Notes under the pieces: model-generated
Told to the model about the DNA's origin: nothing
The model's input: only the letters and a program-made list of their open reading frames with translations
The model's database searches: none
NCBI RefSeq assembly: GCF_055900595.2
Contig: NZ_CM148325.1
Reading direction: 5' to 3' (one strand)
DNA: 64,000 nucleotides
Shown here: piece after piece, positions 8,987 through 19,001 of the stretch
How positions within the stretch are numbered: position 1 is the first letter of the stretch
Layout: every line of letters starts with the position of its first letter
Position numbers and translations under genes: made by a program

Positions 8987-9247
8987 TTATCCAAAGCGGT
9001 AGGTGATGCCGAATCCGGAAGGCGGATAGCGCCACTGTTGTAGGGTTTTTTCATCACACAGTAAACGGCAGGTGCCACACTCCAGGCAGCCGCGATAATC
9101 AACGCGTAAGTCGCCTTCCGGCGTGAGCGAAAAAAGACCAGCCGGACAAGCGTTAATCAACCGTTCTGCCGTCTGGCGCTCAACGGAGTCTGCCGGAACA
9201 ATATGTGGCGCATCAGCAGCGCGCCAGAGATTACGGGCTACAGACAT
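8987..9247 (-). CDS. ygcO: FixX-like ferredoxin-like protein
   Basis: Cys-rich small protein (CLECGTCRLLCDE); 86 aa from the internal start; overlaps the ygcN stop. Confidence 0.75.
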   Translation of the reverse strand: MSVARNLWRAADAPHIVPADSVERQTAERLINACPAGLFSLTPEGDLRVDYRGCLECGTCRLLCDEKTLQQWRYPPSGFGITYRFG

Positions 9248-10509
9248 CGAATACTCCTGACAACATCGCCCGCCAGATGCCACAGGCCATGACGACGTAA
9301 ATGACGCCAGAGCAACTGGCGCAGCGGCGGAACAGGTTTATCACCTTGATCCCATAAATCACGGGAAATATCCTGCATTAACGCAGGCCACGCCCGATAC
9401 CAGCCAGGGCGTTGCAAAAGCGCCGGAACATGCTGATAACGCTGTAGAACATCCCACAACAGGCTGCGCTCTACGTTGTAATGATAAAGCGGAAACAGAT
9501 TTTGCAGCTCGCGGTGCTGGCAGGCGCTTATCAGCGTTTGTGCCGCCGCCTGCGCGCCAGTCAGCGCCATATCCATGCCGCGCACGGAAATTCCGGTATT
9601 GACGCAACTGCGTAACGTATCGCCCACCAGCAGCCAGCCGTTACCGCCATATTGCACCGGCATACTGTGCAAGCCACCTTCTGGCACCAGATGCGCACCA
9701 TACTCCAGTGATTCCGTGTTTTTGATAAGCGGGCGCACTGCCGGATGCGTTTTAAAGCGAGCCAGCAGCTCGCTTGCCGGAACACGACTTTGCGTAAGTG
9801 AAGAGAGCGGGCAAACAATCCCTAACGAGAGCGTTTGTTGATTAGTATAAAGAAATGCGCCGCCGGGTAAGTCATCACAGATTCCGCCGCTGAACAGCAA
9901 CGCTGCGCCTTCGTTATTCTCCAGATGAAAACGTTCTTCAATAGCGGATGTTTCCAGTGAAAGAACTTCTTTGATCCCCAACGCCATCACTTCGCCAGCA
10001 GGACGAGTCACTAACCCGTGACGCTCAGCCAGGACGCTGTTGGCACCTTCTGCCAGCACCACATAACGGGCGCGGAGAATATCGTCACCACAAATAACGC
10101 CGCAAACTCTGCCGTTTTCTTCATACAGTGCATCCACCGTCGCACCAGGGATGCATTCGACACCTTCTTTTTCGGCTTCGGCAACCAGCCACGGATCGAA
10201 CCGTGCACGTAATACGCTCCAGGATTCACCGCCGGGCTGTAAGCTGGAAAACGTCGTTGCGCCATCCGGCGTTAGCAGAGAAAGACTTTCGTGAGTGATG
10301 CGTCGTTCAAGAGGCGCGGTCAGGTGAAACTGAGGGAGGAGTTCCGCGAGCGCATGGGTGTATAAACGCCCGCCGGAAAGGTTTTTACTGCCGGGAATTT
10401 CAGCGCGTTCCAGTAACAGAACGGATAAACCTGCCCGCGCGCAGCGTAAAGCACAAGCGGTGCCTGCTATACCCGCACCAATAATAATAATGTCGCAGTC
10501 GTCTTCCAT
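9238..10509 (-). CDS. ygcN: FixC-like FAD-dependent oxidoreductase (ETF-quinone oxidoreductase family)
   Basis: DIIIIGAGIAG FAD-binding motif near the N-terminus; 423 aa from the internal start MEDDCDIIIIG. Confidence 0.85.
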   Translation of the reverse strand: MEDDCDIIIIGAGIAGTACALRCARAGLSVLLLERAEIPGSKNLSGGRLYTHALAELLPQFHLTAPLERRITHESLSLLTPDGATTFSSLQPGGESWSVLRARFDPWLVAEAEKEGVECIPGATVDALYEENGRVCGVICGDDILRARYVVLAEGANSVLAERHGLVTRPAGEVMALGIKEVLSLETSAIEERFHLENNEGAALLFSGGICDDLPGGAFLYTNQQTLSLGIVCPLSSLTQSRVPASELLARFKTHPAVRPLIKNTESLEYGAHLVPEGGLHSMPVQYGGNGWLLVGDTLRSCVNTGISVRGMDMALTGAQAAAQTLISACQHRELQNLFPLYHYNVERSLLWDVLQRYQHVPALLQRPGWYRAWPALMQDISRDLWDQGDKPVPPLRQLLWRHLRRHGLWHLAGDVVRSIRCL

Positions 10510-10586
10510 GTCATGCCCCAGATATCCAGAGCGCAACACCCTAACATAGCGTTACTTAAGGGAAATTGACCGCCGACACACTCTTA

Positions 10587-10952
10587 TCATTCGCCGCGAT
10601 AGATACAACCTGCGGTGCAGGTTTCTTTTACCATCACCGCACTTAACAGCGGCACAACGGGTTTAACCTGATCCCAAATCCATTTTGCTAAAACTTCGCT
10701 GGTTGGGTTTTCCAGACCTGGAATATCATTGAGATAATGGTGATCGAGGCGCTCATAAGTTGGCTTAAACGCTGCTTTCAGTTCAGCGAAATCGATAATC
10801 CAGCCCGTATGCGGATCGACTTCCCCGGTAATTTCCAGTCGCACCATAAAGGAATGCCCGTGCAGGCGACCACATTTATGTCCTTCCGGGACGTGTGGTA
10901 AGCGGTGAGCGGCTTCGAAGGTGAAATCTTTAAATAACGTGGTGGACATCAT
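10587..10952 (-). CDS. queD: 6-carboxy-5,6,7,8-tetrahydropterin synthase (queuosine biosynthesis)
   Basis: 121 aa from [33 protein letters not shown], the QueD/PTPS motif; the ORF-track start lies 28 codons upstream. Confidence 0.9.
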
Positions 10953-11267
10953 AATTTCTCTACATGACGATAAAACCGCCGTAGAGTACCGGAAAGGCTG
11001 TTTTTTCGCATTATCTAAAACGACTTTGTTGCGCAAAATCGCTGATTTATCTTAATGATTGGCTAAATTCATTTGTTTTTCATTGGGTTGGTTAATCTGT
11101 TTTGTTGTTAAAGACTATTGCTAAAACAGGTTAGTCGATTTGGTTATTAGTTATCGCTATCCCGTCTTTAATCCACACCGTTCACCCCGTTAACCTTACC
11201 TTCTCTTCTGTTTTATGGGCGCTGACAGGGCGCAGAAACAGCTTTGCTTACTGGAACATAACGACGC

Positions 11268-13073
11268 ATGACGACACAGGTCCCACCTTCCGCGTTGCTT
11301 CCGTTGAACCCGGAGCAACTGGCACGCCTTCAGGCGGCCACGACCGATTTAACTCCCACCCAGCTTGCCTGGGTTTCTGGCTATTTCTGGGGCGTGCTCA
11401 ACCAACAGCCTGCTGCGCTTACAGCGACGCCAGCGCCCGCCCCCGCCGCAGAAATGCCGGGTATAACTATTATCTCCGCTTCGCAAACCGGCAATGCGCG
11501 CCGGGTTGCTGAAACATTACGCGATGATTTATTAGCGGCAAAACTGAACGTTAAGCTGGTGAACGCGGGCGACTATAAATTCAAACAAATCGCCAGCGAA
11601 AAACTGCTCATCGTGGTGACGTCAACGCAAGGTGAAGGGGAACCGCCGGAAGAAGCCGTCGCGCTGCATAAGTTCCTGTTCTCCAAAAAAGCGCCAAAGC
11701 TGGAAAACACTGCATTTGCCGTGTTTAGCCTCGGCGATAGCTCTTATGAATTTTTCTGCCAGTCCGGGAAAGATTTTGACAGCAAGCTGGCGGAACTGGG
11801 CGGTGAACGCCTGCTCGACCGTGTCGATGCCGACGTTGAATACCAGGCTGCTGCCATCGAGTGGCGCGCCCGCGTGGTTGATGTTCTGAAGTCCCGTACG
11901 CCTGTCGCGGCACCTTCGCAATCCGTCGCTACTGGCGCGGTAAATGAAATCCACACCAGCCCGTACAGCAAAGACGCGCCGCTGGTGGCGAGCCTCTCTG
12001 TTAACCAGAAAATTACCGGGCGTAACTCTGAAAAAGACGTTCGCCATATCGAAATTGACTTAGGTGACTCGGGCCTGCGTTACCAGCCGGGTGACGCGCT
12101 GGGCGTCTGGTATCAGAACGATCCGGCACTGGTGAAAGAACTTGTCGAACTGCTGTGGCTGAAAGGCGATGAACCTGTCACCGTCGAGGGCAAAACGTTA
12201 CCTCTGAACGAGGCCCTACAGTGGCACTTCGAACTGACCGTCAACACCGCCAACATCGTTGAGAACTACGCCACGCTTACCCGCAGTGAAACGCTGCTGC
12301 CGCTGGTGGGCGATAAAGCGAAGTTACAGCATTACGCCGCGACGACGCCGATTGTCGATATGGTGCGTTTCTCTCCGGCACAGCTTGACGCTGAAGCCCT
12401 CATTAACTTGCTGCGCCCGCTGACGCCGCGCCTGTATTCCATCGCCTCCTCGCAGGCGGAAGTCGAGAACGAAGTACACGTCACCGTTGGTGTCGTTCGT
12501 TATGACATTGAAGGCCGCGCCCGTGCCGGTGGTGCCTCCAGCTTCCTTGCGGATCGTGTGGAAGAAGAGGGCGAAGTCCGCGTCTTTATCGAACATAACG
12601 ATAACTTCCGCCTGCCCGCTAACCCGGAAACGCCGGTGATTATGATTGGTCCAGGCACCGGCATCGCGCCGTTCCGCGCCTTTATGCAGCAACGTGCTGC
12701 TGACGAAGCGCCGGGCAAAAACTGGCTGTTCTTTGGCAATCCGCACTTTACGGAAGATTTCCTCTACCAGGTGGAGTGGCAGCGCTACGTCAAAGAGGGC
12801 GTGCTGACACGTATTGATCTTGCCTGGTCGCGCGATCAAAAAGAAAAAGTTTACGTACAAGACAAACTGCGCGAACAGGGCGCAGAGCTGTGGCGCTGGA
12901 TCAATGACGGTGCCCACATTTATGTCTGCGGCGACGCTAATCGCATGGCGAAAGACGTTGAACAGGCACTTCTGGAAGTGATTGCCGAATTTGGTGGCAT
13001 GGACACCGAAGCGGCGGATGAATTTTTAAGTGAGCTGCGCGTAGAGCGCCGTTATCAGCGAGATGTCTACTAA
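11268..13073 (+). CDS. cysJ: Sulfite reductase [NADPH] flavoprotein alpha subunit
   Basis: [24 protein letters not shown]... flavodoxin plus FAD/NADPH domains; cysJIH order. Confidence 0.95.
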
Positions 13074-14785
13074 TGAACGAAAAACATCCAGGGCCTTTAG
13101 TGGTCGAAGGAAAACTGACAGACGCGGAGCGCATGAAGCTTGAGAGCAACTACCTGCGCGGGACCATTGCGGAAGATTTAAACGACGGTCTGACCGGCGG
13201 CTTTAAGGGCGACAACTTCCTGCTGATCCGTTTCCACGGTATGTATCAGCAGGATGACCGCGATATCCGCGCGGAACGTGCTGAACAGAAGCTGGAACCG
13301 CGTCATGCGATGCTGCTGCGCTGCCGTCTGCCGGGTGGGGTGATCACCACTAAACAGTGGCAGGCAATTGATAAATTCGCCGGTGAAAACACCATTTATG
13401 GCAGCATTCGCCTGACCAACCGCCAGACGTTCCAGTTCCACGGCATTCTGAAAAAGAACGTCAAACCGGTGCACCAGATGCTGCATTCGGTCGGTCTTGA
13501 TGCGCTGGCGACCGCCAACGACATGAACCGTAACGTGTTGTGCACCTCGAACCCGTACGAGTCGCAACTGCACGCAGAAGCGTATGAGTGGGCGAAGAAA
13601 ATCTCTGAACATCTGCTGCCGCGTACCCGCGCCTACGCGGAGATCTGGCTCGATCAGGAGAAAGTCGCCACCACCGATGAAGAACCGATCCTCGGTCAGA
13701 CCTACCTGCCGCGTAAATTCAAAACCACGGTAGTGATCCCACCGCAGAACGATATCGATCTGCACGCCAACGACATGAACTTTGTGGCGATCGCGGAAAA
13801 CGGCAAGCTGGTGGGCTTCAACCTGCTGGTGGGCGGTGGGCTTTCTATCGAACACGGCAACAAGAAAACCTACGCCCGCACGGCGAGCGAGTTTGGCTAT
13901 CTGCCACTGGAGCATACGCTGGCGGTGGCGGAAGCGGTCGTTACCACTCAGCGTGACTGGGGTAATCGTACTGACCGTAAAAACGCCAAAACCAAATACA
14001 CGCTGGAGCGCGTGGGTGTTGAGACGTTTAAAGCAGAAGTGGAACGTCGCGCGGGGATCAAATTTGAGCCGATCCGTCCTTATGAATTTACCGGACGCGG
14101 CGATCGTATCGGCTGGGTAAAAGGGATCGACGACAAATGGCACCTGACGCTGTTTATCGAAAATGGCCGAATTCTTGATTATCCGGGGCGTCCGCTGAAA
14201 ACCGGCCTGCTGGAGATCGCAAAGATCCACAGAGGTGATTTCCGCATTACGGCGAACCAGAATCTGATCATCGCTGGTGTACCGGAAAGCGAGAAAGCGA
14301 AGATTGAGAAGATCGCCAAAGAGAGCGGATTGATGAATGCCGTCACGCCGCAGCGCGAAAACTCAATGGCCTGCGTGTCATTCCCGACTTGCCCGTTGGC
14401 GATGGCGGAAGCGGAGCGTTTCCTGCCGTCGTTTATCGATAACATCGATAATTTAATGGCGAAACATGGTGTCAGCGATGAGCACATCGTGATGCGTGTA
14501 ACAGGCTGCCCGAACGGTTGTGGTCGCGCGATGCTGGCGGAAGTTGGCCTGGTGGGTAAAGCGCCTGGGCGCTACAACCTGCATCTTGGTGGCAACCGCA
14601 TTGGGACACGTATCCCACGGATGCATAAAGAAAACATCACCGAGCCGGAAATCCTGGCGACGCTTGATGAACTGATAGGGCGCTGGGTGAAAGAACGTGA
14701 AGCGGGTGAAGGCTTCGGCGACTTTACGGTGCGTGCGGGCATCATTCGCCCGGTGCTCGATCCGGCGCGCGATTTGTGGGATTAA
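13073..14785 (+). CDS. cysI: Sulfite reductase hemoprotein beta subunit
   Basis: 570 aa; start overlaps the cysJ stop. Confidence 0.95.
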
Positions 14786-14801
14786 CCATCAGTCCAGTCT
14801 T

Positions 14802-14838
14802 GTAGGCCTGATAAGACGCGTAAGCGTCGCATCAGGCA
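14802..14838. repeat. REP element between cysI and cysH
   Basis: gtaggcctgataagacgcgtaagcgtcgcatcaggca palindromic unit. Confidence 0.5.
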
Positions 14839-14858
14839 AGGCAAACAGTGAGGAATCT

Positions 14859-15593
14859 ATGTCCAAACTCGATCTAAATGCCCTGAACGAACTGCCGAAG
14901 GTAGATCGCATTCTGGCGCTGGCGGAAACTAACGCCGAGCTTGAAAAACTGGATGCTGAAGGCCGCGTTGCCTGGGCGCTGGATAATCTGCCCGGTGAAT
15001 ATGTACTTTCTTCCAGCTTTGGCATTCAGGCGGCGGTGAGCCTGCATCTGGTGAATCAGATTCGCCCGGATATTCCGGTGATCCTCACCGATACCGGTTA
15101 TCTGTTCCCGGAAACCTACCGCTTTATTGACGAGTTAACGGACAAACTCAAGCTCAACCTGAAAGTGTACCGCGCTACCGAAAGCGCCGCCTGGCAGGAA
15201 GCACGCTACGGCAAACTGTGGGAACAGGGCGTTGAAGGCATTGAAAAGTACAACGATATCAACAAAGTCGAACCGATGAACCGGGCGCTGAAAGAACTAA
15301 ACGCGCAAACGTGGTTTGCTGGCCTGCGCCGTGAACAATCCGGCAGCCGCGCTAATTTACCGGTGCTGGCAATTCAGCGTGGCGTATTTAAGGTGCTGCC
15401 CATTATTGACTGGGATAATCGGACGATATATCAGTATCTGCAAAAACATGGCCTGAAATATCATCCATTATGGGACGAAGGATATTTATCGGTCGGTGAT
15501 ACCCATACAACCCGTAAATGGGAACCTGGTATGGCGGAAGAAGAAACGCGTTTCTTTGGCTTAAAAAGGGAATGTGGGCTGCACGAAGGGTAA
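14859..15593 (+). CDS. cysH: Phosphoadenosine phosphosulfate (PAPS) reductase
   Basis: 244 aa from [32 protein letters not shown]; the ORF-track start at 14697 overlaps cysI and the REP. Confidence 0.95.
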
Positions 15594-15610
15594 ATATTGC
15601 CGGATAAAAT

Positions 15611-15648
15611 AAACGCCTCTGTCAGAAATGATGGGGCGTTTTTATTTT
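15611..15648 (+). terminator. Putative intrinsic terminator downstream of cysH
   Basis: aaacgcc ... ggcgttttt hairpin followed by a T-run. Confidence 0.5.
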
Positions 15649-15855
15649 GCGAGCAGCATTCCGGCATTTAAACGTGAATATAGCAAGGGAAATCAACAGT
15701 TATAGAATGGCGTCGGGTGCTTGAGGCTGTCTGGCGTTGAGCATTCGCGAGGTTCCAGATGGACAAAAGCCCCAGGCGATATTTCTATCAACCTGAGGCT
15801 CGCGTTCGAACGTAGCAATTCGGATGTTAGTCTCTTCTTTGCAGGGAGGCAAGAC

Positions 15856-16008
15856 ATGCTGACAAAATATGCCCTTGTGGCAATCATCGTACTGTGTTGT
15901 ACAGTACTGGGATTCACGCTGATGGTAGGCGACTCGTTGTGTGAGTTGAGTATCAGAGAACGTGGTATGGAGTTTAAGGCAGTTCTCGCTTACGAATCGA
16001 AGAAGTAG
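15856..16008 (+). CDS. hokX: Hok/Gef-family type I toxin (50 aa, small membrane peptide)
   Basis: [50 protein letters not shown]: Hok-like hydrophobic helix, conserved Cys and AYES tail; AGGGAGG SD 6 nt upstream; stable 3' hairpin acgcggggg...ccccgcgt after the stop. Symbol is from recollection of a sokX/hokX locus at this position in K-12. Confidence 0.7.
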
Positions 16009-16246
16009 CCACCACGCGGGGGTAAAACCCCGCGTATTGAATTGTGATGGTTTGGTCTCCTGCACCCTTTTTTTCATTTATATTGTTTTTGTGAATATTA
16101 TGCCTGTGTTTATTATTTATATATATCACCAATGAAAATCATTGAATTATTTACAATGTAAATATTTTATTGAACGATATATATCACAGATAATTCTTAA
16201 TATATGCGTAAATATCCTTTAAGTTTTACTGAAGGATAAAAACATT

Positions 16247-18904
16247 GTGACTTTCTTTGATTTCTGGGGAAAAACCCGACGTGGCGAGAAAGAGGGTGGC
16301 GACGATTATCACCTTCTTTGCTGGCATTCGCTGGATGTAGCCGCGATAGGCTATTTAATGGTCAAAAACAACTGTTTCGGGCTGGCTGACTATTTTCGTC
16401 AATTAGGTTTCGCTGACACGGATCAGGCAGCACAATTTTTCGCCTGGTTGTTGTGCTGGCACGATACTGGAAAATTTGCCCGCTCATTTCAGCAACTTTA
16501 CCTGCACCCACAACTCAAGGTTCCGGAAGGCGCAAGAAAGAATTACGAAAAGATCTCTCATTCAACGCTGGGTTACTGGTTGTGGCATCATTATTTAATT
16601 GAATGTGAAGAGTTGCTTCCTTCATCTTCACTCTCTTTGCGCAAACTTAAACGGGTAATAGATATGTGGATGCCCGTGACGACCGGGCATCATGGTCGGC
16701 CTCCTGACCGTATCGATGAACTGGACAACTTTCTGCCTGAAGACAAAGCTGCCGCACGAGATTTTCTCCTTGCAATCAAGTCACTGTTTCCGCTCATAGA
16801 GATCCCCACATTCTGGGATGATGACGAGGGCGTTGAACTTATAAAACATCTTTCCTGGTATATATCTGCAACCGTCGTACTCGCAGACTGGACGGGATCG
16901 TCAACGCGGTTTTTTCCACGCGTCGCACATGTAATGGATATTAAAGATTACTGGCAGAATGCTTTAGCTCAGGCTCAAAACGCATTAACCGTCTTTCCTC
17001 CAAAAGCAGAAACCGCACCTTTCACTGGAATTAACACGCTGTTTCCTTTTATTGAGAACCCAACACCGTTACAGCAAAAGGTGCTGGATCTGGATATCAG
17101 CCAGCCAGAACCGCAGTTGTTTATTCTGGAAGATGTGACTGGCGCAGGTAAAACAGAAGCGGCGCTTATCCTGGCGCACAGGTTGATGTCTGCGGGTAAC
17201 GCTCAGGGGCTGTTTTTTGGTTTGCCGACAATGGCAACGGCCAATGCCATGTACGATAGGCTGGTCAAAACCTGGCTTGCTTTCTATTCGCCGGAATCCC
17301 GCCCCAGCCTGGTGCTGGCACACAGCGCTCGTTCGCTAATGGATCGCTTTAACGCATCGCTGTGGTCTGGTGATTTTGTGGGGTCAGAAGAACCGGATGA
17401 ACAAGCGTTCAGTCAGGGATGTGCGGCCTGGTTTGCTGGCAGTAACAAGAAGGCGTTGCTGGCTGAAATTGGCGTCGGCACGCTGGATCAGGCGATGATG
17501 GCGGTGATGCCGTTCAAACATAATAATCTGCGGCTTCTGGGGCTGAGTAACAAAATCCTGCTAGCCGATGAGATCCACGCCTGTGACGCTTATATGTCGT
17601 GCATTCTTGAAGGGCTGATCGAGCGGCAGGCGCGTGGCGGAAACAGCGTTATTTTGCTTTCTGCTACGTTGTCTCAACAGCAGCGTGACAAACTCGTCGC
17701 CGCCTTTGCGCGTGGTGCAGAGGGCCAGCAAGAAGCTCCGTTGCTGGAAAAAGATGATTATCCCTGGCTGACGCATGTCACGAAATCCGATGTGCATTCG
17801 CACCGGGTAGCGACGCGCAAAGACGTTGAGCGCAGCGTGAGTGTGGGTTGGCTTCATAGCGAACAAGAGTGTATTGCGCGTATCGAATCGGCGGTAAGTC
17901 AGGGGAAATGCATCGCCTGGATTCGGAATTCTGTCGATGACGCCATCCAGGTTCATCGTCAGCTGCTTGCCCGCGGCGTCATTCCTGCTTCCAGCCTTTC
18001 ACTTTTTCATAGCCGCTTTGCTTTTAGCGATCGCCAGCGAATTGAAACGGAGACGCTGGCACGCTTTGGTAAAGAAGACTGTTCACAGCGTGCCGGAAAA
18101 GTCCTCATTTGTACTCAGGTCCTGGAGCAGAGCGTCGACTGCGACCTGGACGAAATGATTTCCGACCTTGCCCCTGTTGATTTACTGATCCAGCGAGCAG
18201 GGCGATTACAGCGACATATCCGCGATATTAATGGTCAGTTAAAGCGTGACGGTAAAGACGAGCGTCACCCTCCTGTATTGCTGATTCTGGCCCCCGTCTG
18301 GGACGACTCTCCGGGTGAAGAATGGTTTGCCAGTGCCATGCGTAACAGTGCATTTGTCTATCCCGATCATGGGCGAATCTGGTTGACGCAGCGTGTGCTG
18401 CGTGAACAAGGCGCGATTCAGATGCCACACTCAGCCCGGCTTCTGATTGAATCAGTCTACGGTGAGGACGTGGTAATGCCGGAAGGGTTTGCCCGCAGCG
18501 AGCAGGAGCAAGTGGGCAAATACTACTGCGATCGTTCAATGGCTAATAAGTTTGTGCTGAACTTCAGGCCCGGCTATGCCGCCAATATCAACGATTACCT
18601 TCCGGAAAAACTGTCGACACGTCTGGCTGAGGAGTCTGTTTCCTTGTGGTTGGCTACCTGTATTGACGGTGTGGTGAAGCCTTATGCCACTGGCGCTCAC
18701 GCATGGGAAATGAGCGTTGTCAGAGCGCGCCAAAGCTGGTGGAAAAAACATCGGGATGAGTTTTCTTTACTGGAAGGGGATGCGTTCAGGCAGTGGTGCG
18801 TTGAACAGCGGCAAGATCCGGAGATGGTAAATGTGATTTTAGTTACCGATGACGAAAGTTGCGGGTATTCGGCTACGGAGGGATTGATTGGCAAGGTTGG
18901 TTGA
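16247..18904 (+). CDS. cas3: Cas3 HD-nuclease/helicase, type I-E
   Basis: 885 aa, GTG start after an AAGGA SD; N-terminal HD-like motif (HLLCWHSLDVAA) then helicase-sized body; directly upstream of cse1. Confidence 0.9.
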   Translation: MTFFDFWGKTRRGEKEGGDDYHLLCWHSLDVAAIGYLMVKNNCFGLADYFRQLGFADTDQAAQFFAWLLCWHDTGKFARSFQQLYLHPQLKVPEGARKNYEKISHSTLGYWLWHHYLIECEELLPSSSLSLRKLKRVIDMWMPVTTGHHGRPPDRIDELDNFLPEDKAAARDFLLAIKSLFPLIEIPTFWDDDEGVELIKHLSWYISATVVLADWTGSSTRFFPRVAHVMDIKDYWQNALAQAQNALTVFPPKAETAPFTGINTLFPFIENPTPLQQKVLDLDISQPEPQLFILEDVTGAGKTEAALILAHRLMSAGNAQGLFFGLPTMATANAMYDRLVKTWLAFYSPESRPSLVLAHSARSLMDRFNASLWSGDFVGSEEPDEQAFSQGCAAWFAGSNKKALLAEIGVGTLDQAMMAVMPFKHNNLRLLGLSNKILLADEIHACDAYMSCILEGLIERQARGGNSVILLSATLSQQQRDKLVAAFARGAEGQQEAPLLEKDDYPWLTHVTKSDVHSHRVATRKDVERSVSVGWLHSEQECIARIESAVSQGKCIAWIRNSVDDAIQVHRQLLARGVIPASSLSLFHSRFAFSDRQRIETETLARFGKEDCSQRAGKVLICTQVLEQSVDCDLDEMISDLAPVDLLIQRAGRLQRHIRDINGQLKRDGKDERHPPVLLILAPVWDDSPGEEWFASAMRNSAFVYPDHGRIWLTQRVLREQGAIQMPHSARLLIESVYGEDVVMPEGFARSEQEQVGKYYCDRSMANKFVLNFRPGYAANINDYLPEKLSTRLAEESVSLWLATCIDGVVKPYATGAHAWEMSVVRARQSWWKKHRDEFSLLEGDAFRQWCVEQRQDPEMVNVILVTDDESCGYSATEGLIGKVG

Positions 18905-19001
18905 GATGCCTGCGACAGGATTCTCTGAATAGTTGATACACAAAAAAGGATGGAAGGATGGATAACCGACCTGGGATGGTCTTTTTTACGAGAGGATGCG
19001 T

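Follow-up and report, generated by a model that had tools for sequence, protein, structure and literature searches.

An intact hokX/sokX (hokG) toxin-antitoxin locus between cysH and cas3 and its relation to the neighboring CRISPR-Cas genes

Does the small open reading frame found between cysH and cas3 belong to a complete hok/sok toxin-antitoxin module, is this module maintained in Escherichia genomes, and does it have any part in the persistence of the CRISPR-Cas genes beside it? These questions arise from a stretch of 64,000 nucleotides (hereafter the window; NCBI RefSeq assembly GCF_055900595.2, contig NZ_CM148325.1), for which an initial annotation had proposed an intact toxin gene of the Hok family, an antisense Sok RNA and a role of both in stabilizing the CRISPR-Cas locus.

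The toxin gene itself was described correctly. The 50-aa product of the reading frame covers the whole Pfam HOK_GEF model (PF01848, E=6.3e-10, model positions 1-42 of 42) and matches PHROG 251, "MokW-like host killing" (E=8e-12), and the strong Shine-Dalgarno sequence attributed to it, AGGGAGG, stands at 15843-15849, 6 nt 5' of the ATG, where it is invariant across orthologues and overlaps the Sok -35 element on the opposite strand. The frame is intact, its complete peptide being an exact match to UniProt HOKG_ECO57, and lies, as reported, between cysH (14859-15593) and cas3 (long ORF at 16247-18904). The single transmembrane helix, the conserved cysteine and the AYES tail were found as well: a single hydrophobic segment occupies residues 6-24 (mean Kyte-Doolittle 2.76) and is followed by a polar C-terminal half, Cys14 is shared by every Hok paralogue, Cys29 by all of them except HokB, and the tail is the same as in R1 Hok and HokC. 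The peptide has the full family pattern of an N-terminal helix with Cys14 and a polar tail with Cys29 and an editable Tyr46, in keeping with the Cys29/Cys46 (or editable Tyr) pattern of Hok proteins (PMC5630033). The hok/sok observation is confirmed as real, and is no chance pattern.

Scores below the curated cut-offs were obtained with two NCBIfam models, the HokA equivalog NF007290 (53 bits vs. a cut-off of 89) and the Hok subfamily NF007279 (39.5 bits vs. 73). The window peptide is not HokA, and neither model captures the clade of HokE and HokX. Searches of PADLOC and of PDB sequences with the peptide returned no match. Some other candidates were discarded. The ATG at 15869, which is the terminal AUG of the Rfam alignment, is out of frame and opens an ORF of only 17 aa. 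An antisense ORF of 125 aa (15700-16077, minus strand) has lost its start and acquired stops and frameshifts in orthologues; a second antisense ORF of 74 aa was also considered, and the antisense ORFs are broken in orthologues. Control by LexA, as for hokE, was rejected: a CTGT-N5-ACAG palindrome is present in the hok coding sequence (~15893-15905), and its spacing, as read by eye, is wrong for a LexA box.

By sequence and position the locus is hokX/sokX (hokG) of E. coli B, K-12 and O157:H7. It was already known, since the peptide equals HOKG_ECO57 and the locus has been named and mapped in the literature, and the novelty implied at first must be given up: the locus has been described beside CRISPR-I in three papers (PMC3903273, PMC12736100, PMC7232551). 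In one of them hokX of E. coli B and of AIEC is placed at cysH-iap, with the copy of E. coli B reported as inactivated by an IS (PMC7232551). In another, 90% of UPEC carry hok and sokX beside cysH, the remainder having only sokX, like K-12 (PMC12736100). Maps of CRISPR-I arrangements also include hok sok, absent only from strains with the E2 (K-12) cas variant (PMC3903273). The exact peptide occurs on at least 1000 contigs of a public collection, where it is called "Hok/Gef family protein" or "Putative protein HokG, HOKG_ECO57". In all genomes that we retrieved, the RefSeq annotation has a Hok peptide flanked by cysH on one side and by cas3 or iap on the other. Over 15.5 kb (9000-24500) the three complete E. 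coli genomes nearest to the window share 98.2-98.3% identity with it and the fourth 98.0%, with the next tier at ~95.6%; its probable source is an Escherichia lineage that has been sampled sparsely.

Table 1. Features of the hok/sok locus in the window
Feature	Position	Strand	Basis or remark
cysH intrinsic terminator (left module boundary)	15617-15646	+	Hairpin and T-run (scan), 3' of the cysH stop at 15593
Whole hok/sok module	~15703-16075		Larger, at the 3' end, than the interval first reported (15649-16040)
Putative hok promoter, -10 (TAGAAT)	15703-15708	+	Read from sequence, 6 nt 5' of the inferred mRNA start; -35 weak
Full-length hok mRNA (inferred ends), ~361 nt	15715-16075	+	Rfam position 1 and paralogue 5' ends
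tac element, GGGUGCUUGAGGCU (mRNA 5' end)	15715-15728	+	Predicted to pair with fbi or locally with 15765-15773
sokT target hairpin (GAGGC...GUCUC)	15796-15835	+	Third helix of the Rfam alignment
Sok RNA gene (SokX orthologue), ~58 nt	15816 to 15759	-	Maps onto annotated K-12 sokX b4701
Sok promoter	15852 to 15824	-	-35 TTGCCT (15852 to 15847), 17-nt spacer, -10 TAACAT (15829 to 15824), 7 nt to +1
12-codon upstream ORF	15824-15862	+	Ends AUGCUGA across the hok start; frame analysis
hok (hokX/hokG) coding sequence	15856 (ATG) to 16008 (TAG)	+	50 aa and stop
TadA motif UACG at codon Tyr46	15991-15994	+	Edited A at 15992, Tyr to Cys; read from sequence
GC-rich post-stop hairpin	16014-16035	+	8 bp, dG -18.4, z=-3.5 vs. 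shuffles
fbi element, GGUCUCCUGCACCC	16054-16067	+	Complementary to the 14-nt mRNA 5' end; then U7 at 16068-16074

The toxin gene is one part of a larger module (Table 1). The covariance-model search suggested along with the initial annotation recovered the leader of the hok mRNA: in a scan that covered the entire 64-kb window, Rfam RF01794 was the sole match, at 15715-15871 on the plus strand, extending over the full 157-nt model (103.3 bits vs. a gathering score of 59, E=2.4e-22). The same model also matches the hok-sense strand of R1-type plasmid hok, K-12 hokB, hokE and the K-12 sokX region. Because the matches at these reference loci are all hok-sense, with K-12 sokX annotated on the opposite strand, RF01794 must describe the hok mRNA leader and not the antisense RNA. 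The family is labeled "sok antitoxin", and the strand of its matches should not be taken as that of a Sok gene.

At the 5' end, a -10-like hexamer is equally spaced from the GGG that begins the transcript in hokA, hokB, hokC, hokE and R1-type hok. At the other end, the predicted mRNA terminus is the U7 run right after fbi, and the similarity among orthologues stops exactly at 16074/16075. A consensus scan for promoters and terminators reported neither a hok nor a Sok promoter above threshold and found no local terminator hairpin before the U7 run, a point against a reading modeled on plasmid R1; the hok and Sok promoters and the mRNA 3' end therefore rest on homology.

The GC-rich hairpin reported after the stop codon is indeed there, and a counterpart exists in all six comparison loci (hokA, hokB, hokC, hokE and R1-type hok included), but it cannot be the terminal hairpin that it was taken for, because the transcript model continues to ~16075. 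By the same model, an interval ending at 16040 omits both fbi and the U-run. In the R1 system, the 3' trimming of hok mRNA halts at the post-stop GC hairpin, and the hairpin of hokX would have a similar function as 3'-processing stop and stabilizer. As a separate observation, an IS4-like IS421 (IS186-family) is inserted at 16030 in five of 40 genomes of an evenly spaced sample, with fbi and the cas genes removed, and the IS186 copies of K-12 lie 18-19 bp past the stop codons of hokC and hokE. From these two observations, the post-stop hairpin looks like a recurrent target of the IS186 family.

The two ends of the mRNA are predicted to pair with each other. In the minimum free energy fold of 15715-16075, nucleotides 1-6 and 9-14 pair with the 3' end, and the tac-fbi duplex has a dG of -21.8 kcal/mol, compared with -13.8 +/- 2.5 for shuffled 5' ends, of which one in 500 was as good. 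A site equivalent to fbi is present 42-62 nt past the stop codon in six chromosomal loci (hokX, hokA, hokB, hokC and both hokE copies), and in R1-type plasmid hok the fbi core was found at the equivalent place, inside a longer predicted duplex. Across paralogues, tac and fbi differ in a compensating manner (GGGUGC/GCACCC, GGGUGCC/GGCACC, GGCGC/GCGCC). The predicted 5'-3' helix is the tac-fbi lock of the hok family. In the Rfam consensus, the tac bases have a local partner, AAAAGCCCC (15765-15773).

The sokT hairpin is predicted to carry both the conserved GAGG (15796-15799), at the position of the mok Shine-Dalgarno sequence, and the binding site for the 5' tail of Sok. Among ten hokX orthologues, seven of the nine variable leader sites fall within 15800-15823, and the changes at paired positions are one-sided and compatible with pairing. 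Both the recognition tail at the 5' end of Sok and the sokT hairpin are formed by these 24 nt; the flank at 15824-15855 is invariant. Such a concentration of variable sites could reflect a diversified specificity of Sok-hok pairing or a relaxed constraint on the loop.

An antisense Sok RNA had been predicted on the minus strand at about 15720-15850, and a gene homologous to sokX is recognizable inside this interval. In the predicted fold of its RNA (dG -23.7, z=-3.3), a single-stranded 5' tail precedes a hairpin that is followed by UUUUGU, a layout that is the same as in annotated sokB, sokC and sokE. The search for a minus-strand promoter, which the initial annotation had also recommended, came out divided: the consensus scan gave none, but a TTGCCT-17-TAACAT promoter could be read by eye, base-identical to K-12 over the region 15824-15858 and with the same architecture as that found 5' of annotated sokB. 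With 8 of 12 positions agreeing with the consensus, it falls under the scan threshold and counts against the R1-like reading. SokX RNA of K-12 has been detected in published transcriptomes (bioRxiv 10.1101/2024.06.20.599902).

The leader departs from the R1 plan in its upstream reading frame. There is no canonical mok frame, a UCG being found where mokB, mokC and R1 mok have the start codon AUG, and near the conserved GAGG no ATG, GTG or TTG opens an in-frame upstream ORF, only non-canonical candidates being available. The difficulty of calling mok has been acknowledged (bioRxiv 10.1101/2025.08.07.668861). The absence of a canonical mok counts against the R1-like reading, whose translational-coupling step would be hypothetical at hokX. 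What the leader does have is a 12-codon ORF that is kept in 10 of 10 orthologues, even through a change of its stop from TGA to TAA. This ORF is possibly a substitute for mok, or possibly a by-product of the Sok -10; it may be incidental, since it has no Shine-Dalgarno sequence and its ATG simply complements the CAT that ends the Sok -10 (TAACAT). One interpretation would make the clade of hokE and hokX a mok-less variant of hok/sok, in which Sok would act only through duplex-triggered decay and sokT occlusion, Hok would be translated from its own Shine-Dalgarno sequence or by termination-reinitiation after the upstream ORF, and the editing of Tyr46 to Cys by TadA would act as a further gate on lethality. 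We put this forward tentatively, as a rather doubtful proposal.

Editing at this codon deserves attention on its own. Hok proteins combine a hard-coded Cys at either residue 29 or residue 46 with an editable Tyr at the other of the two (PMC5630033), and the toxicity of HokB rests on a C29-C46 disulfide (PMC12214031). Within the 34 nt around the UACG motif of the window, two bases differ from K-12 hokE, one of them within the 21 nt flanking the motif. For hokE, editing is reported at ~40% (PMC12214031), and in ten UPEC isolates hokG was transcribed and 10-37% edited; the primers of the latter study match the window exactly. Transcription and editing are thus documented experimentally for orthologues. 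A local hairpin around UACG like that of tRNA-Arg2 was also sought and rejected, no stable fold being predicted here or in hokE, which is another point against the R1-like reading.

Taken together, the peptide and leader family, the Sok anatomy, the tac-fbi complementarity, the conservation and the purifying selection described below are the basis on which we consider it very probable that hokX/sokX works according to the paradigm of plasmid R1. From the family we infer the transcript ends, the processing, the decay by RNase III and the toxicity, and likewise a biological role in abortive infection or persistence or as a selfish element. Under this reading, a weak promoter would produce a stable mRNA of ~361 nt, in which tac, while paired with fbi, would allow neither translation nor binding of Sok. 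Slow trimming from the 3' end down to the GC hairpin would remove fbi, and the 5' end would then refold locally, exposing the sokT hairpin and the hok ribosome-binding site. The short-lived Sok RNA, made from its own promoter, would pair with sokT by its 5' tail and lead to decay of the mRNA. Once the supply of Sok stops, the 50-aa Hok would be made and inserted into the inner membrane via residues 6-24, with depolarization or killing as the outcome. TadA editing of UAC to UGC at codon 46 probably adds a second periplasmic cysteine, which may pair with Cys29 and raise toxicity.

A different possibility is that hokX is an inert relic, transcribed at most and unable to kill, like the hok copies of K-12. 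Some data point in this direction. Post-segregational killing is cited as lacking for the tested hokA, hokB and hokC loci (bioRxiv 10.1101/2025.08.07.668861), and this weighs against the R1-like reading too; no canonical mok exists at hokX; and coverage of the region is low in both RNA-seq and ribosome data from EHEC EDL933 (PMC5331693). Moreover, the locus is lost or truncated in ~24% of genomes, owing to the K-12-type arrangement, IS421 insertions that remove fbi, or deletions. The pattern of substitution, however, is hardly that of a relic. Among ten orthologues, the hok coding sequence shows nine synonymous changes and one non-synonymous change (C15F), for 35 synonymous and 115 non-synonymous sites, and O157:H7 has exactly the same Hok peptide in spite of only 95-98% identity in the flanking DNA. 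The Shine-Dalgarno sequence, the Sok promoter, the UACG motif, the GC hairpin and fbi are all conserved among orthologues, and the few changes seen in fbi and sokT keep the pairing. This conservation is not due to another gene, since the antisense ORFs are broken in orthologues. Furthermore, HokE, which is 78% identical and belongs to the same 60% cluster, was toxic when expressed as the representative of its cluster, and 42 of 45 Hok homologues tested were toxic (bioRxiv 10.1101/2025.08.07.668861); the window peptide is presumably toxic as well, as judged from its family. Because of the excess of synonymous changes, the conserved elements and the unchanged peptide, we regard hok as a gene maintained by selection and its interpretation as a relic as very unlikely.

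How the locus is distributed has a direct bearing on its supposed service to the CRISPR-Cas genes. At least 80% of the 361-nt hok mRNA region was matched in 4146 of 5426 complete E. coli genomes (~76%), all such counts being made without phylogenetic independence. The adjacent IG and the window-type cas3 start were kept in 2239 of these 4146. A K-12-type junction, in which the leader is fused to cas-E2 and no hok reading frame is left, was present in 1174 of the 5426. Other arrangements include cysH-hok-iap, in which all cas genes are gone and hok is kept; cysH-hok-IS421-CRISPR remnant, in which the IS is inserted at 16030, within the GC hairpin; and a single genome that has lost hok/sok and cas3 together and kept casA-E.

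RNA toxin-antitoxin pairs that safeguard CRISPR-Cas do exist, namely the CreTA pairs of haloarchaeal type I-B systems, whose CreA antitoxin, a CRISPR-repeat-like RNA, depends on Cascade. The hokX/sokX module might be an addiction cassette guarding the adjacent type I-E CRISPR-Cas genes against deletion, or a CreTA-like safeguard with a Cascade-dependent antitoxin. The hok gene does adjoin cas3 on the same strand, with the cas3 ORF 171 nt downstream, and in strains devoid of cas genes the deletion junction is found exactly at the hok mRNA 3' end (16074/75), from which it can be seen that cas deletions spare the hok module. A module that guards nothing beyond itself, or recombination junctions that are shared, would explain such a junction just as well, however. 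The claim that the module stabilizes the CRISPR-Cas locus finds no support in the counts: 1907 of the 4146 hok-positive genomes (46%; again not phylogenetically independent) have no adjacent window-type cas3 start, the cysH-hok-iap and cysH-hok-IS421-CRISPR remnant arrangements being examples. Whole-cas deletions keep hok, and the genome without hok/sok and cas3 still has casA-E. The cas-E2 variant of K-12 is kept without the hok coding sequence in 1174 genomes, in agreement with PMC3903273, and the K-12 junction to cas3 is found in 1174 of the 1280 genomes without an 80% hok match (~92%). No CRISPR-repeat-like sequence above chance was detected in 15600-16250, the best local score against the window's own repeat being 9, a value equaled by 64 of 300 shuffles. 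Genes of the hok family are not enriched near defense systems either (12% vs. 9.4% expected; bioRxiv 10.1101/2025.08.07.668861). Although CreTA and hokX/sokX are alike as toxin-antitoxin modules beside cas genes, Sok is an ordinary cis-antisense RNA, with no repeat-like element and with a distribution uncoupled from cas. We consider a guarding function of either kind extremely unlikely.

Some features of the region around cas3 were recorded along the way. The cas-E2 replacement of K-12 begins right after the hok ATG (15856-15859), and in the 1174 genomes of this type the hok promoter, leader and sokX are found ~95 nt 5' of cas3, with the hok 3' end absent; in these genomes the 5' UTR of cas3 could include the hok leader, with SokX antisense to this leader. 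At the start region of cas3 (16204-16250), the window has TTTT at 16224-16227 and O157:H7 has TTT. Because of the extra T, the ATG at 16204, which corresponds to the RefSeq start of an 899-aa Cas3, is out of frame and runs into a stop at 16237. The long cas3 ORF of 885 aa starts at a GTG at 16247; the closest strain shares the four T, and its cas3 is annotated in RefSeq as "frameshifted". The spacer between hok and cas3 (16076-16246) is very AT-rich, with a GC content of 20-26% in 100-nt windows, and varies among strains from the hok mRNA 3' end onward. A possible cas3 promoter within this spacer is a sigma-70-like match at 16089-16116 (TTGTGA-16-TATTAT). The CRISPR array, of type I-E (24859-25506), lies between cas2 and iap and has 11 repeats at a 61-nt spacing, the repeat loop being CGCTAG in the first eight and CGCCAG in the last three.

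Regarding the association with CRISPR-Cas, the result is chiefly negative. The copy in the window nevertheless provides a clean and complete reference for a locus that K-12 lacks, and the lack of a canonical mok start in the hokE/hokX clade is a useful point. In addition, since clinical isolates show TadA editing at the Tyr46 codon, hokX offers a natural system for testing whether toxin activity is gated by editing.

Among known systems, the closest is the hokX/sokX of E. coli B and K-12 (hokG in O157:H7), which occupies the same site, next to cysH on one side and to cas3 or iap on the other. Over the leader and Sok region, K-12 sokX (b4701) aligns nearly base for base with the window; K-12 keeps the promoter, the leader, sokX and the hok ATG, with the rest replaced by the cas-E2 variant, whereas the window copy is complete. 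A single leader substitution, G15739, is private to the window, and its Sok-tail allele is common to O157, 2013C-4282 and MS1657.

The closest paralogue is hokE/sokE, with 78% identity in the peptide and 81% nucleotide identity across the locus. Like hokX, hokE has UACG at codon 46, no canonical mok ATG and an ATG inside the complement of the Sok -10; unlike hokX, it is located at ybdK-entD. A 4-nt indel before the hok ATG leaves the upstream ATG in frame in hokE and out of frame in hokX, where it opens the 12-codon ORF. The Sok 5' tails of the two loci differ, and hence their specificities differ. In E. coli NRG857c, hokE is duplicated in tandem, with two Rfam leader matches and two identical coding sequences ~500 bp apart, and RefSeq has spurious antisense "hypothetical protein" pseudogenes over both copies.

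The mechanistic paradigm is hok/sok (parB) of plasmid R1, with which hokX shares the peptide family, the leader fold, the antisense Sok, the post-stop GC hairpin and the tac-fbi complementarity. The two peptides are only 34% identical, and R1 hok is plasmid-borne, whereas hokX is chromosomal. Finally, R1 hok has a separate mok frame with its own Shine-Dalgarno sequence and AUG, as well as a terminal hairpin after fbi, and hokX has neither.
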